Source: Promethearchaeota archaeon
Lineage (GTDB): Archaea; Asgardarchaeota; Lokiarchaeia; Sigyniarchaeales; SOKP01
Direction of reading: 5' to 3'
NCBI GenBank assembly: GCA_016839705.1
Contig: JAEOTR010000014.1
Span: 32,001 to 96,000 of the forward strand
Length of the DNA: 64,000 nucleotides
Within the stretch, counting starts at the first letter, position 1. Each line of letters starts with the position of its first letter. Under the pieces are notes generated by a model that was given only the letters and a program-made list of their open reading frames with translations, ran no database searches and had not been told where the DNA came from. A program made the translations under genes and the position numbers. Positions 36,005-44,906 of the stretch are shown piece after piece.

Positions 36005-36928
36005 TTGAAAAAAAAGGAGATGTGTATTATATTGGATGATATTGAAATAAAAGATGGAAAAATGTTTGGTGGCTGGCGAGCTCCTGAAAACCTGTATAGA
36101 GGTTTAAAAACCTCGATTCATGACGACAATGTTGCACAAAAAGTTGGAATGCGCGGTGGAACCATCCCTGGTACGATACATTTAAGTTTGTTTGCACCTT
36201 TAGGTCAGAAAATATTTGGCAATAGATGGTTCGAGAAAGGAACAGTGAGTATGTATTATACCTATGCAACTATCGATAAGGAGGAGGTTAGAGCAATTAT
36301 TGAATTACCTGAAGGTACTACAAAAGATTCCTTACCCCTTACAGCAGATGATGTTCAATGTAAAGCTTGGGGTGAGCTGAGAAGCGGACAACAAATTATG
36401 ATGGGAACCATATCTATAGATAATCCAAAAGAACCTTCATATCTACAATCACTTGAGTTAAAAAACAGCCCACCTGAGGAATTGCGTATTTTAGAGGGAT
36501 ATAAAGTAGGACAGGAATTTGGTCCTGAGGAAGTTTTAATTTCTCAAGATGCTGCTATTAAGGGATTGCCAGGTATAACTGATAGGCTGGAATATTACAA
36601 GGAAGGATCTCCATGGGGAAATTCTATTCTATCTCCAAGTGCGTCGTTTGGTGTAATGACGATGGGTTTAACAGCGTATAATAAGACATGGGATAAAGGT
36701 GTTCCTTTTTTCGGTGCTACTGAGGTAAAATATATAAATGGACCGATACTTGTTGATGTACCATATATTGCAAAAGGTAACATCGCTAGCGCAGGTGTTT
36801 CCCGCAAAACTGAGTATTATTGGCTTGATGCTACCTTAGAAGAAAAAGAAACAGGGAAATTAGTAGCGTCAATGCGTCATATGAACAGATATATGAAAGC
36901 TGGTTCACCAGTGTATAAAGATCAATAA
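36005..36928 (+). CDS. Double hot-dog (MaoC-like dehydratase) protein
   Basis: SIHDD..AQKVG.RGG...G..H hydratase-like motif; SPWG; second hot-dog half. Confidence 0.65.
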   Translation: MKKKEMCIILDDIEIKDGKMFGGWRAPENLYRGLKTSIHDDNVAQKVGMRGGTIPGTIHLSLFAPLGQKIFGNRWFEKGTVSMYYTYATIDKEEVRAIIELPEGTTKDSLPLTADDVQCKAWGELRSGQQIMMGTISIDNPKEPSYLQSLELKNSPPEELRILEGYKVGQEFGPEEVLISQDAAIKGLPGITDRLEYYKEGSPWGNSILSPSASFGVMTMGLTAYNKTWDKGVPFFGATEVKYINGPILVDVPYIAKGNIASAGVSRKTEYYWLDATLEEKETGKLVASMRHMNRYMKAGSPVYKDQ

Positions 36929-39149: not shown

Positions 39150-39641
39150 TCAACTTGGTGGTTGTCCTTTCTTTCTTCGCATAACTCCAACTACTAGGCC
39201 ATGACGACCAGTGCTTCTTGTTCTTTGACCACGTACTTTCAATCTTAGATGATGGCGAACACCTTTATAAGATTTAATTTTTTTCATTCTATCTATGTCT
39301 CTTTTAAGGGAAATATCAAGTCTATTTCCTATAATATGAAGATCCTCACCAGTACGCAAGTCCTTTTTTCTATTTACCATCCAATTTGGAATGCCATTTT
39401 TAACTGGATCTAAAATAATTTCTTCAATTCTATTTAAGTCTTTTTCTGGTATTGCACCAATCCTTATATTAGGATTTATCTTTGCGACATGTACGACTGC
39501 TTGGGCAAATCTCATTCCAACTCCTCTAATTTGGGTCAATCCATATTCTACTTTTGCATTTCCATCTACTTGCGCACGGAGTTGTCTGAAGAAAACTTTT
39601 TCACGAAAATTTTTTGGTCTAAGCGGAGATACAGAACTCAT
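39150..39641 (-). CDS. rps13: 30S ribosomal protein uS13 (archaeal)
   Basis: IRGVG, IPNWMVNRKKD, SYKGVRH..LKVRGQRTRSTGR. Confidence 0.97.
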   Translation of the reverse strand: MSSVSPLRPKNFREKVFFRQLRAQVDGNAKVEYGLTQIRGVGMRFAQAVVHVAKINPNIRIGAIPEKDLNRIEEIILDPVKNGIPNWMVNRKKDLRTGEDLHIIGNRLDISLKRDIDRMKKIKSYKGVRHHLRLKVRGQRTRSTGRHGLVVGVMRRKKGQPPS

Positions 39642-39839
39642 TTGAATTCAATCAATAATTAGTTTATTTAATATTTTGATTTAATGTTAGTAAATACAGA
39701 ATTTAATAATAAATTTTTGGTTTTCTCATAGAATCAGTAATATTCACTTCTTCTGTACATCTTATTATATTTACATTCAATTATTTTAAATTAGGTAGGA
39801 AATACAGGTAGAATAGGCAAATTCTAAAATATAACCAAC

Positions 39840-41339
39840 TCAATAATTAGGTACTCTCTTATTTTCTTCCAATCGTGTATTAATATGTTTTTTGCTATTA
39901 TTTTTCTTAGATCCCGCAATCCTTTGGAGTAGGGGTAACCCTGGTTTTACTTCTTCTAAAGGTTTTGATTCAATTAGATTGTTAGATATTAATTTTTCAT
40001 AAAGTTCTTTTCCCTTCATCGTTCTAATTAGTACAGTATTCCAGCCAGAAGGAGAGCCTATTGATCCGATTGAGATATCTGCAGATTCTGAAGTTAAGTC
40101 AAAACACATTTCACAATCTTCACGGCCTAGATGAGAAATTTCTTTGATGGGTATGTTTAATTCTTCACCACTATTCGTATACACGAAGAATTTACCTTTA
40201 TTAATATCCATTTTTTTAGCATTTTTAATATCTACCTTCAATTTCTCACAAATTTTTAAAAGAGATTCATATGAAAACGATTCCATACAAAATATTCCAA
40301 TCCGGTATTCAACATTATTCAAGGAAGGAAATCCTATATCATAGATTGTTGATTTTAAAAGAGCTTGAATCTGACAAGGAACACCCACCACAGCGATTTT
40401 TTTATTGTGGAGTTCACTTTGATTTAATATTTGCAGATTAGGATTATTAACATATTTAGTACCTGCCGTTGAAAAGATTTCTTCTTTACTTTTGAGTAAT
40501 ATTGGTTCAGGTCGCCATAAGGTATTACTCATTTTCGCTCCAATGGCAACATCTACTGCATTATTTTCTAAAAGGTAATGAAGGCAAGTGCTTGAAACAC
40601 CCCCATCTTGACAGATTTCTGATATTTCTTTTATTTTAGTACGAGCAGAATATGCTTCAAGAAAGAAGCCTACATTTTGATATTCTTTGATTTCAGAAGT
40701 GCTCTCTTGAGTCATATTCAAAACTCTCACGGGTAAGTATGTTCTAGGACATACAAAATAACACAGTCCACAGCGAATACACTTATCTTCATCAATTTTT
40801 CCGAAACCATTATAAATTTGAAGACAATTAACAGGGCATATTCCTGCACACAACCCGCAACCAGAACAGTTTTTTGTTTCAAAAATGATTTTAACTGGTT
40901 CATAAATAGGCTTTAATTGAGAAGTCTGCGTTTTATTTGGTTTTATTAAAAAATCCTTGAAGATGAGTTGTTCAGGATTATTCTCATATCCTTCAATCTT
41001 ATCATAAAGTTCTTCTGAGCTTACAAGATTTTCATTTTTTAGTAATTCTAAGAAGCTCAATGTTTTATTTAGTTCAATAGAATTCATTTCAGAAAATAGT
41101 TCGAGGGATTTTAAATTGCTCTCAGAATTTTGTTTTAAGAAGTTAAGAAGAGAATATTTTAATTTCTCTTCATCTAGCATTTTGATTAGTATAGTTTCAT
41201 ATTGGGATTCATCATAAATTCCCGCATCAAGTATATCTTGTTTTGCGTCAATTAATGCTCGAATTCTATATGAATCTAAGGCATCCGCTACATTTTTTAA
41301 ATAATCCCATGAAAAATTTTCTTCAATACTCATAATCAT
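39840..41339 (-). CDS. FrhB/FdhB-family F420-binding subunit with 2x[4Fe-4S] ferredoxin and an N-terminal extra domain
   Basis: CSGCGLCAGICP, CIRCGLCYFVCP, QDGG, AGTKY, GVPCQ, GIFCME, CEMC, ADISIGSIGSPSGW. Confidence 0.9.
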   Translation of the reverse strand: MIMSIEENFSWDYLKNVADALDSYRIRALIDAKQDILDAGIYDESQYETILIKMLDEEKLKYSLLNFLKQNSESNLKSLELFSEMNSIELNKTLSFLELLKNENLVSSEELYDKIEGYENNPEQLIFKDFLIKPNKTQTSQLKPIYEPVKIIFETKNCSGCGLCAGICPVNCLQIYNGFGKIDEDKCIRCGLCYFVCPRTYLPVRVLNMTQESTSEIKEYQNVGFFLEAYSARTKIKEISEICQDGGVSSTCLHYLLENNAVDVAIGAKMSNTLWRPEPILLKSKEEIFSTAGTKYVNNPNLQILNQSELHNKKIAVVGVPCQIQALLKSTIYDIGFPSLNNVEYRIGIFCMESFSYESLLKICEKLKVDIKNAKKMDINKGKFFVYTNSGEELNIPIKEISHLGREDCEMCFDLTSESADISIGSIGSPSGWNTVLIRTMKGKELYEKLISNNLIESKPLEEVKPGLPLLQRIAGSKKNNSKKHINTRLEENKRVPNY

Positions 41340-41367
41340 TCTTACAATATTTTTTAAAGTAAATTAT

Positions 41368-41438
41368 TCCGAAAACCCTTGCTATGGGTTAGTTCCTTCT
41401 CAACTATAATTTTTTTGAGAAGATCATTCTAATTCGGA
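41368..41438 (-). promoter_or_regulatory. Eukaryote-like SECIS element candidate (3' of mvhD)
   Basis: Minus strand: UUAG-AAUGA-U-CUUCUCAA-AAAAAUUAUAG-UUGAGAAG-GAA-CUAA. AUGA/GA core, 8-9 bp stem, A-rich apical loop; outer UCCGAA/UUCGGA pairing possible. Confidence 0.7.
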
Positions 41439-41860
41439 TTGTGTTTTGGTAGAGGAGGCAAGCGATAAATTTTATTGGTAATATCTGCTACAGAATTTAT
41501 AAATTTCTCAACTTCTGCTGCGGAACAAAAGTATTGTTGGACTCGATCTTCAGAAATACCTTCATGCTTTAACAATTTTTTCAGTGCAAGTATATGTTCG
41601 TAGGTATTCGTATTTCCATTTTCAAATTCACATTCACCTACTTTTCAAGATATAATCGCAACACCATCAGCACCGTTTAAGAAAGCTTCCATGATTAGAT
41701 GGATGCCAACACGTCCAGTGCATCTTACTCGGATGAGATGAAAATCTGTAGAGTATGATTTTCTTGTGACTCCTGTTAAATCTGCTACGGAATATCCTCA
41801 TTTATCGCAGCCAAAGGCAACAATTTTTCTTGATTCTTCATTTTTTACTTCAGACATCAT
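41429..41860 (-). CDS. mvhD: MvhD/VhuD hydrogenase Fe-S subunit, selenoprotein with 2 Sec (143 aa); not in ORF track
   Basis: KIVAFGCDKUGYSVADLTG...IRVRCTGRV...AFLNGADGVAIISUKVGECEFENGN...EDRVQQYFCSAAEVEKF. UGA at 41798-41800 and 41645-41647 occupy conserved MvhD Cys positions. Confidence 0.93.
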
Positions 41861-41878
41861 AAATACCCTTTAATTTGT

Positions 41879-43876
41879 TTATTCTTCTATACTCTCAGGT
41901 ATTTTTTCTACAGTTTCTATTTCACTACATCCAATGCCCTTAAGTTCCTGCGTGAATTGAATATCTCTATAATACTTTAGGTCTATTGCTCTTGCTGGGC
42001 AAGAAGATATACATACACCACAGCCTTTACATTTTAAATCATCAACCTTAGCAATCTCGTTCTCATTAACTTTAATTGCTTCATAAAAGCATAGTTTTTC
42101 ACACCGATGGCAACCCATGCATAAATCTTCATTCACTTCAGCAATAATTAATTCTTGTTTAATGGTATCATGTGATAATAGAGTAGATGCTTTACTTGCT
42201 GCTGCTAACGCAGAGGATACGGAATATGGAATATTTTTTGGTCCTGCGGCACATCCCGCAATATAAATTCCTATGTCTTTTGTCTCTTGAGGGCTTAAGC
42301 ATCCATGAACTTCAGAAAGAAACCCACTTGGACCTCTACTTAATCCCATAACATTTATCATCTCTTCAGTTCCTTTTGAAGGATTCATCCCCGTTGATAA
42401 CACGACAAGATCAGCATTAATTTTTACAATTTCACCTGTTAACGATGAATACGCTCTGACCTTCAACTTATTTGTTTCTTTATCCTCTATAATTTCACCT
42501 ACTTTTCCCCTAATCATTCGTACCCCAGTCTCTCTTATTTTTCTATAGTATTCTTCGTTTCCTTTATCTGTCGTTCGAATATCAATATAAAACATAAATA
42601 CTTCCATATCAGGATACTCTTGTTTTAAGAGTTGTGCATTTTTAAGAGCAACATTACAACAGACAAAGGAGCAATATGGGTTAGCATTTATGTCTCTCGA
42701 ACCAACACACTGGATCATTACTATCGTTTTTGGTGATTCTCCAGTGGAGATTCGATAAATATGTCCGCCAGTTGGCCCTATAGGGCTTAGCATCCTTTCT
42801 AATTCAATCTGTGTTATTACATCAGGATAATAACCGTAGTTATATTCATTTGATTCCCAAATTGGATACTCATCCCATCCTGTCGCGACAATAGCTGCTC
42901 CGACCGTAATATCGATGAATTCATCCTCTTGTTCAAATTCAATGGCCTCAGCAGGACAAATTCGTTCGCAGTTTTTACAATCAATGCATACATTTCTATC
43001 CATAACAGCTAGTTTTGGAACAGCTTGGGGAAATGGTATATAAATTGCATTTCTTTCACCAATACCTCGATCAAATTCACTCGGTACTTTAATTGGGCAC
43101 TTAGTTGTACACAACCCACATCCAGTGCATTTTTTCTCGTTCACATATCGAGCATTTTTTCTAATCTTGACTTTATAATCTCCAGGGATTCCACTAAACT
43201 CTACAACATCGCTATAAGTATACAGATTTATATTTGGATGTTTCGATGCGTTTACCATTATTGGGGCGAGAACTCATATCCCACAATCATCAGTAGGATA
43301 AATTCGATCTAATTGTGCCATTTTTCCTCCAATTGTAGCTTCTTTTTCAACCAAATAGACAGGTATTCCCTGATTTGCTAAGTCTAGAGCAGCATTCATT
43401 CCAGCAATCCCTGCTCCAACTACTAAAACTGCCCTTTCTGCAGGAATTTCTTTTCGAGGAACATTTTCTAATTCTCTAGCTCTATTAATTCCTGCTTTTA
43501 CTAATCGTATAGCTTTCTCTGTAGCTTTTTTCTTATCATCTCTATGAACAAAAGAGCAATGTTCTCTTAAATTAACCATTTGGAAATAATATGGGCTAAT
43601 TCCCGCCTCAACTAAAACAGCTCTGTAGGTGGGTTCATGAATTTTTGGTGTACATGCCGCAACGACAACTCTGTTCAAATCTTGTTCCAAAATATCATTT
43701 TTTATTATATTTTGGCCAGGATCAGAGCAAGTAAATGCATTAACTCTGGAGATAATTACATTAGGAAGATGTTCGATAGCATCTCTGACTGCATCACAAT
43801 CAACAGAAGCTTTAATATTTACGCCTCACTCGCATACATAGACTCCTATTCTAACAATGGTCTGATTCTCAGACAA
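41879..43876 (-). CDS. hdrA: Heterodisulfide reductase subunit A, selenoprotein with 2 Sec (about 665 aa)
   Basis: One frame through UGA 43826-43828 (RIGVYVCEUGVNI) and UGA 43274-43276 (IYPTDDCGIUVLAP). Also CSDPGQ, AACTP, NLREHCS, GAGIAG, QCVGSRD..YCSFVCC and four ferredoxin motifs. TTG start after AAGGTG; alternative ATG at 43906. Confidence 0.95.
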
Positions 43877-44144
43877 ATAATACACCTTTTTGTAAAACTT
43901 CACCATTAATTTTTTGTTAATCTGAAATATTACATAAAATCTTATTGGATGATGAAATTATTGAAAGAATTTATTTTTTCTGATTAAGCTTCATAATAAT
44001 GATAATGATAATAAATTGTAATTTTAATAAATGATTTCGAACATTTTTTTTTCAAGAAGAGCTTTATAGTCAGTTGTTCTTAATTTAGATTAATTATTTA
44101 GTGCAATTTTTTATAGTACAAACAAGTTTAAGAAGTAGTGAATT

Positions 44145-44906
44145 ATGAAAAAGAATAATGAGGAGTATTATTACATTAATGGGAAGCATTATGATAATAT
44201 GATAAAGAGCAGAAATGCGTATGAATCCATTCCATTTTATGTAAAGCAAGTAAAAAAATATGGTGGTCCTATTCTCGAGTTAGCCTGTGGAACTGGAAGA
44301 ATTACCATTCCCATTGCAAAAAAAGGAATATCAATTGTTGGGTTGGATTTCTCTGTAAAAATGTTAGAACAAGCCAAAAGAAACTCAATAGGTAATAATG
44401 TAGAAATTGAATGGATAGAAGCTGATATGACAAACTATAGCCTAAGTAGAAAATTTTCTGTAATACTAATGCCCGCTGCTGCAATGAATTGGGTGCTTGA
44501 GAATAAAGACATAGAAAAATGTTTAACCTGTATAAAGGACCATCTAAACCAAGATGGGATATTTATTTTTAATGTGTTTAATCCCAATTTGGATATTTTA
44601 AAGAGAGATCCTTCAAAAAAATATGATATATCTAAATACCCAAATCCAGATGGTAAAGGAATTGTAGTTGTAACCGAAAGCAATTATTATGACAAAGCTA
44701 CTCAAATTAATCACATAACCTCGTATTATAATATTAATAGTAAGGAAATAATCAAGAAATTGAAATTAAGAATGTTTTTTCCACAAGAATTAGACGCTTT
44801 ACTTAATTACAATGGTTTTAAAATTGACCATAAATATGGATCTTTTGTCGAAGAACCATTTAATTCCGATTCAAACTGGCAAATTGTAATCTGTCATAAG
44901 AAGTAA
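44145..44906 (+). CDS. Class I SAM-dependent methyltransferase
   Basis: ILELACGTGR, GLDFS, ADM. Confidence 0.88.
   Translation: MKKNNEEYYYINGKHYDNMIKSRNAYESIPFYVKQVKKYGGPILELACGTGRITIPIAKKGISIVGLDFSVKMLEQAKRNSIGNNVEIEWIEADMTNYSLSRKFSVILMPAAAMNWVLENKDIEKCLTCIKDHLNQDGIFIFNVFNPNLDILKRDPSKKYDISKYPNPDGKGIVVVTESNYYDKATQINHITSYYNINSKEIIKKLKLRMFFPQELDALLNYNGFKIDHKYGSFVEEPFNSDSNWQIVICHKK

Follow-up and report, generated by a model that had tools for sequence, protein, structure and literature searches.

The 64,000-nt stretch of DNA analysed here (the window; Promethearchaeota archaeon, GenBank assembly GCA_016839705.1, contig JAEOTR010000014.1, positions 32,001 to 96,000 of the forward strand) carries the genes hdrA and mvhD followed by an frhB-like gene. 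The sequences pointed strongly to hdrA and mvhD as selenoprotein genes, in which four in-frame UGA codons would be recoded as selenocysteine (Sec) through one selenocysteine insertion sequence (SECIS) element located after mvhD. Coordinates are positions in the window, and all genes of the operon were found on the minus strand. The hdrA gene (heterodisulfide reductase subunit A-like, 43876-41879) extended from TTG 43876 to the TAA at 41881-41879 and encoded 665 residues with two predicted Sec, and mvhD/vhuD of the FlpD family (41860-41429) extended from ATG 41860 to a TAG and encoded 143 residues, also with two predicted Sec. The spacer between them (41878-41861), the sequence of which was read directly, was only 18 nt long and contained a Shine-Dalgarno-like AAAGGGU motif. 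The frhB-like gene followed mvhD after 89 nt in the same orientation, with ribosomal protein genes further downstream. A preliminary description of this DNA had placed the hdrA start at TTG 43876 and the two genes 18 nt apart, and both were confirmed; the TTG and the Shine-Dalgarno motif AAGGTGA were conserved among orthologues. ATG 43906 was ruled out as the start codon because several orthologues had in-frame stops between this position and the conserved start.

The in-frame UGA codons of hdrA and mvhD

When translated with genetic code table 11, the open reading frames (ORFs) of both genes were split by in-frame TGA codons. Reading UGA as Sec gave full-length proteins, as the preliminary description had claimed, and the alignments to the HdrA and MvhD families agreed with it. 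HdrA contained Fer4 and FAD/Pyr_redox domains (Pfam) and aligned with the solved HdrA 9sfi_A at 724.8 bits over residues 19-658, and MvhD matched PF02662 at 8.4e-37 and the solved MvhD 5odc_D at 99.8 bits. The UGA codons were located at 43828-43826 and 43276-43274 in hdrA and at 41800-41798 and 41647-41645 in mvhD, all on the minus strand, and the positions and motifs described before (CEUG at 43826, DCGIU at 43274, CDKU at 41798, and SUKVGEC at 41645) were reproduced. The first codon, in the N-terminal CxUG motif of HdrA (residue 17 from TTG 43876, or 27 from ATG 43906), aligned with cysteine (Cys) in the solved HdrA (vCyCg) and in the Cys-type paralogues that the same genome encodes. By alignment it is the Loki-type extra Sec position; the M. 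maripaludis protein has Cys at this site of its CxCG motif. The second codon, in the DDCGIU motif, aligned with an X in the deposited 9sfi_A sequence, and since this X falls at the position given as Sec197 in the cryo-EM study of M. maripaludis HdrA (PMC13518236), the codon was assigned to the canonical Sec/Cys197 position. The third and fourth codons, in CDKU and SUKVGEC of MvhD, aligned with the two X, read as Sec, of the deposited VhuD sequence 9sfi_K and occupied the first and second canonical Sec positions of VhuD. Three of the four UGAs were thus aligned with Sec in solved Methanococcus structures and the remaining one with Cys, and all four sites aligned with Cys in the Cys-type homologues. 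The preliminary description had also put every UGA at a Cys that ligates an Fe-S cluster. The Cys alignment held at all four sites, whereas ligand status was backed only for HdrA Cys197, which the partner protomer provides as a ligand to the N-terminal cluster (PMC9012536). Even for this position, a Cys-Sec197 selenylsulfide relay has been proposed instead of a ligand role in a cryo-EM study of 2026 (PMC13518236).

Conservation of the UGA codons among related loci

The locus was compared with 67 syntenic hdrA-mvhD-frhB loci of other species, with frhB identities of 53-88% and HdrA identities of ~70-91% to the window proteins. These 67 loci are related by descent, and the counts are therefore not independent trials. 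UGA was found at both HdrA Sec sites and at the first MvhD Sec site in 67/67 and at the second MvhD site in 61, where the remaining 6 loci encode Cys; this pattern is far removed from chance. Loss of UGA or Cys from these sites in orthologues had been named beforehand as evidence against recoding, and every site in every locus carried one or the other. UGA was likewise kept in 15-16 of 16 close orthologues, and in a set of 30 relatives the orthologues of highest identity (85-89%) all had two TGAs, with up to five in other paralogue groups. A third UGA was present within hdrA in 10 of the 67 loci. Together with the Cys at the second MvhD site in 6 of the 67, this indicated, at the level of sequence, that exchange between Sec and Cys is ongoing inside one orthologue group.

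The conservation of the UGAs bears directly on the possibility that hdrA and mvhD are pseudogenes or were split by assembly errors, which would account for ORFs that are in pieces under table 11. The same UGAs were found in 61 to 67 of the 67 loci, from independent assemblies, in orthologues ~70-91% identical to the HdrA of the window, and the read-through proteins matched solved structures over their full length. This explanation is refuted by the conservation, and its remaining probability is negligible.

The stop codons of the two genes were also compared. The hdrA gene ended in TAA in 50 loci, in TAG in 17, and in TGA in none, so that UGA was never its stop (0/67), as opposed to the 14% of long ORFs of this genome that end in UGA. 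The mvhD gene ended in TAG in 44 loci, in TAA in 17, and in TGA in 6. The hdrA-mvhD spacer was mostly 10-22 nt long in these loci, with 21 nt as the commonest length.

The SECIS element after mvhD

The preliminary description had noted a SECIS-like hairpin following mvhD. This element was located at 41441-41360 (minus strand) by pattern scan, consensus fold, covariation, and covariance model, and was classified as a type I eukaryote-like lokiSECIS. The basal helix was formed by 41438-41433 (UCCGAA) and 41373-41368 (UUCGGA) and overlapped the last codons of mvhD, and the AUGA core (41427-41424) began 2 nt past the mvhD stop codon. Helix II consisted of 9 bp (41423-41415 with 41403-41395; UCUUCUCAA/UUGAGAAGG) and was closed by an apical loop of 11 nt (AAAAAUUAUAG) with the form AAAAA...AG. 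On the 3' side of helix II, the AA variant of the core was followed by an invariant C (41394-41392), and a side hairpin with the pattern ACCC-N7-GGGU was located on the same side at 41389-41375. The consensus fold agreed with the structure from the pattern scan, and the element had every feature published for lokiSECIS, in the AUGA_AA variant.

Covariation was analysed in 66 distinct orthologous elements over 19 base pairs, with shuffles and sliding partners as the controls. The AUGA and the final G of the apical loop were invariant, and hardly any variation was seen in the basal helix or the AAC within this orthologue group. In total, 93.6% of the cells were paired, compared with 31-61% when the partners were slid by 1-3 columns. 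Changes on both sides were found in 14 of the 19 pairs, and none of 500 shuffles reached the observed values. All nine pairs of helix II showed both-sided changes in these loci, and the side hairpin was 94% paired with such changes in three of its four pairs. The pair of helix II beside the core was unpaired in 23 of the 66 loci; this position was read, on the pattern of the alignment, as the putative non-Watson-Crick closing pair of the kink-turn quartet. Judged by folding and covariation, the element is a three-way junction, with the side hairpin and the basal helix as arms around the core and stem-loop already published.

The Sec machinery of the genome

The genome is a metagenome-assembled genome of 3.36 Mb with 31% GC in 97 contigs (numbered here with the prefix C). 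The preliminary description had made its reading depend on Sec machinery elsewhere in the genome, and tRNA-Sec, an EFSec-like protein, a PSTK-like protein, SepSecS, and two Sec-containing SelD were all found. SepSecS (C87:135853-137010) matched at 380 bits, above the cut-off, and the PSTK-like match of 146 bits was under the curated cut-off. The EFSec-like GTPase (C16:17984-18871) scored 235 bits against a cut-off of 242 with the TIGR00475 selB model, which we take to be mainly bacterial SelB in origin. Two tandem selD (SPS) genes (C5:4909-5721 and C5:6257-7060), both above the cut-off, had one in-frame TGA each, and an element of the lokiSECIS type was located after the first one (C5:4637-4716). 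The tRNA-Sec gene was found at the overlapping ends of C16 (22950-23079) and C87 (137400-137555), between EFSec and SepSecS, and the two contigs could be joined through these shared ends. The tRNA had a UCA anticodon, a 9-bp acceptor stem, G73, and a 4-bp T stem in an intact T arm, with an insertion of ~35 nt after the 5' acceptor/D region. The insertion differs from the tRNA-Sec intron reported in 2016, which is in the T loop. Its score of 40 bits was below the Rfam gathering score, and this was attributed to the insertion. ARAGORN found no tRNA in the window, and the one 'tRNA-SeC' that it reported genome-wide (contig C18) was judged a false positive with a weakly paired AT-rich fold.

These results also bear on the possibility that UGA does not encode Sec here and is instead suppressed in the ordinary way or reassigned, for instance to Trp or Cys. 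In favour of this explanation, the frames of hdrA and mvhD would be open under any reading of UGA as a sense codon. However, 14% of the genome's long ORFs end in UGA, and the code is therefore not reassigned. The in-frame UGAs were found only at Cys-aligned sites, three of which coincide with the X (Sec) of solved structures, and the genome has a complete Sec pathway along with a SECIS that is conserved. Suppression or reassignment is therefore very improbable, and recoding as Sec was retained as the explanation of the four UGAs.

Search for a second recoding signal

The preliminary description had reported only one visible SECIS and had held that a second element in or near hdrA would argue against sharing. 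The pattern scan, the covariance model, and the scan by consensus folding all revealed none. The covariance model, built from the 66 orthologous elements and thus tuned to this orthologue group, was run over the whole window with the filters off and gave one match, the SECIS after mvhD (100.7 bits, E 6e-23); the next-best score in the window was 13 bits, outside the operon. A sliding consensus fold of the 66-sequence alignment over the whole of hdrA and mvhD recovered the SECIS at -16.1 kcal/mol with nine compensatory pairs, and no other covarying structure was found there. Synonymous-site diversity inside hdrA dipped at the two ends of the gene only, and no conserved local hairpin of the bacterial SECIS type, and no dip in synonymous diversity, was found just 3' of any of the UGAs. 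A relaxed SECIS pattern scan over 39500-44400 yielded only weak further candidates that were not conserved, and two of these were considered and rejected. The one at 42084 inside hdrA (7-bp stem, 17-nt loop) had no covariance-model score, and there was no conserved structure at that position. The one at 41339, over the frhB start, had one mismatch, a loop whose start was not A-rich and whose end was not G, and again neither a covariance-model score nor a conserved consensus structure.

A hairpin of the form GUCUGA-N-UCAGAC (43874-43860, minus strand) was found directly after the hdrA start codon and was invariant. The corresponding motif, [A/T/G]TG-TCTGA-N4/7-CAGACC-A, was present in 65 of the 66 orthologous loci, with the rare codons CAG (20% of the Gln codons) and ACC (14% of the Thr codons) essentially invariant within it. 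The loop of the hairpin varied, as did the length and the sequence of the N-terminal tail after it. The hairpin showed no covariation and had no SECIS-like core, and its distance to the first UGA varied widely among orthologues. It was also found in a 47%-identical Sec paralogue on C3 and was absent from the Sec paralogue on C15, which has three UGAs. No evidence of a link between this hairpin and recoding was seen.

The hairpin is relevant to the idea that a further cis signal, within hdrA or ahead of it, helps to recode the UGAs of this gene, such as the start hairpin itself or a weak local structure. Its invariant rare codons in 65 of the 66 loci and its presence in the distant Sec paralogue would agree with this idea, as would the 2.4 kb that separate the first UGA from the SECIS. 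However, the C15 paralogue has its three UGAs without a start hairpin, and the variable distance to the UGA, the missing covariation, and the lack of a SECIS-like core also count against it; nor did synonymous diversity dip near either hdrA UGA, and the covariance model and the pattern scan gave nothing. An additional signal of this kind is unlikely, and the single element after mvhD was kept as the probable source of recoding in both genes.

The leader of hdrA (43877-43990, minus strand) was conserved as well. It contained two GGUGA boxes, the second of which, ~7 nt from the start codon, was the Shine-Dalgarno motif. A block that was almost invariant, TAATCAGAAAAAATAAATTA, was found ~100 nt upstream, and conservation dropped to ~0.4-0.5 beyond it. 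This block may be a promoter with a B recognition element (BRE) and a TATA box (BRE/TATA).

A probable single element for two cistrons

It is highly probable that hdrA and mvhD are selenoprotein genes whose four UGAs are recoded via one lokiSECIS, probably on one dicistronic mRNA. All four UGAs would be decoded by Sec-tRNA(Sec) with the help of the archaeal Sec-specific elongation factor that delivers it, and the eukaryote-like kink-turn SECIS (AUGA...AA, the lokiSECIS) 3' of mvhD would direct the recoding. The two genes most likely share one dicistronic mRNA because they are only 18 nt apart. The single 3' element would then act on UGAs ~0.2, 0.4, 1.85, and 2.4 kb upstream. The directing of Sec insertion at these upstream UGAs by the SECIS of the window is a prediction from the sequence. 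The sequence features, the homology, the Sec machinery, the conservation, and the covariation of the SECIS were observed, and the searches detected no second element; that the two genes are co-transcribed, that Sec is really inserted, and that the element acts from afar on the other cistron is our inference.

Several points weigh against this interpretation. The cited literature reports no experiment that demonstrates Sec insertion or co-transcription in an Asgard archaeon. The covariance model was trained on this group and could miss a very different second signal. At gathering thresholds, no Rfam family, the SECIS families included, matched anywhere in the window; standard SECIS tools detect nothing in Loki genes (Mariotti et al. 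2016, PMC4989117). The invariant hairpin at the hdrA start could in principle take part in recoding. It is a tentative and improbable idea that the signal extends beyond the published stem-loop, as a three-way junction whose covarying side arm would join with the start hairpin in the machinery by which a single 3' element reaches UGAs in another cistron over 2.4 kb.

Comparison with known Sec systems

The arrangement of hdrA and mvhD around a shared SECIS, and its reading, have been published before for this clade. In Lokiarchaeota, Mariotti et al. 2016 (PMC4989117) reported a multi-Sec HdrA, a VhuD with two Sec, a short hdrA-vhuD spacer, and one lokiSECIS found only after VhuD. They inferred that one element on a polycistronic mRNA served up to six UGAs over ~2 kb, a reach that they called 'unparalleled', and noted that HdrA never terminates in UGA. 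The tandem in the window belongs to the same clade (Lokiarchaeia/Promethearchaeota) and has the same gene order, short spacer, Sec sites, and avoidance of UGA as the hdrA stop. Its SECIS has the same AUGA, the 9-bp stem, and the 11-nt loop that starts with AAAAA and ends with AG. The 3' dinucleotide of the core was AA in the window, whereas it is GA in the lokiSECIS of that study, in which AA occurs only in VhuU (PMC4989117). The model described there includes neither the basal helix nor the side hairpin, and otherwise nothing essential differed. In a later survey of hundreds of Asgard genomes, Huang et al. 2024 (PMC11227280) described type I elements similar to eukaryotic SECIS, with an AUGA_AA core in hdrA/frhD of Lokiarchaeia, and repeated the shared-SECIS idea. 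Across families, they saw no strong conservation of nucleotides in the internal loop or the lower stem, whereas the basal helix and the AAC were nearly invariant in the group of the window. The side hairpin is mentioned in the main text of neither paper (PMC4989117, PMC11227280). The inference of the preliminary description that one element is shared by the two cistrons was thus supported by all the tests run. That description had listed as known only the multi-Sec HdrA/VhuD and the eukaryote-like SECIS and had given the sharing as its own inference, but the idea had already been published in these two papers.

The solved Hdr/Vhu proteins of Methanococcus (9sfi) come from genes with the same hdrA-vhuD synteny and share three Sec positions with the window proteins. 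The SECIS of Methanococcales is of the euryarchaeal GAA_A type, unlike the AUGA type of the window. The element of the window resembles eukaryotic SECIS, including those of selenoprotein P (SelP), in its AUGA/GA-type kink-turn core, A-rich apical loop, and 3' position, and these too are thought to act on distant UGAs. SelP has two SECIS on a monocistronic mRNA (PMC4989117), whereas one element would serve two cistrons here. SBP2 was not detectable in Lokiarchaeota (Mariotti et al. 2016, PMC4989117). A eukaryote-like element of this kind bears on the origin of the eukaryotic Sec system. The value of the present analysis lies in the confirmation, on 67 loci, of the published idea of one element for two cistrons, and modest new details were the covariation of the side arm in the SECIS, the hairpin beside the hdrA start, and the avoidance of a UGA stop by hdrA.

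The frhB-like gene and its UGA stop

The frhB-like gene, conserved in synteny with hdrA-mvhD in the related loci, extended from 41339 or 41333 to 39840 on the minus strand and encoded ferredoxin and FrhB_FdhB N- and C-domains (Pfam). By comparison with the orthologues, ATG 41333 is probably the conserved start. The gene ended in a TGA at 39842-39840, which the preliminary description had taken as a true UGA stop (39840) that must still terminate in the presence of the SECIS. The orthologues stopped at the same C-terminal position (…RVPNY) with TAA in 37, TAG in 27, and TGA in 2, and the window therefore uses UGA where 64 of the 66 orthologues use UAA or UAG. Read-through of this UGA was rejected, because the 17 residues that it would append up to a TAA are not conserved and translation of the orthologues stops at the same residue; the UGA was taken to be the true stop on this comparison. 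No Shine-Dalgarno motif was found upstream of frhB. An A/T-rich box was located ~20 nt upstream of the ATG, and the gap between the ATG and the SECIS was only ~30 nt. These features suggest that frhB may be transcribed from a promoter of its own or as a leaderless mRNA, and in the former case its mRNA would not carry the SECIS. The concern about the frhB stop is minor because the stop is 1.5 kb 3' of the SECIS, the orthologues end there, and the gene possibly has a promoter of its own.

Other Sec loci in the genome

Eight hdrA-mvhD pairs were found in the genome, three of the Sec type and five of the Cys type, some of which were fused HdrA-MvhD or double-HdrA forms. The Sec-type pairs were located on C81 (2+2 Sec), C3 (1944-4407), and C15 (10525-13051), the latter two with 3+2 Sec each, and the Cys-type pairs were located on C18, C1, and C32 (three pairs). 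When the covariance model was run over the whole genome, elements were found after selD (C5), after the hdrA-mvhD pair on C15, after a VhuU-like gene (C70), and at one place on C73. The element after the C3 pair had another geometry; it was missed by the strict pattern scan and was absent from the covariance-model matches at E<=1. Three matches of the lokiSECIS type followed other ORFs. The one at C73:~86800-87340 followed an ORF with adjacent UGA-UGA codons, that at C13:~69750-69980 followed a small CxxU protein, and that at C70:~36060-36300 followed a VhuU-like C-terminus with the sequence DCULSCAAH.

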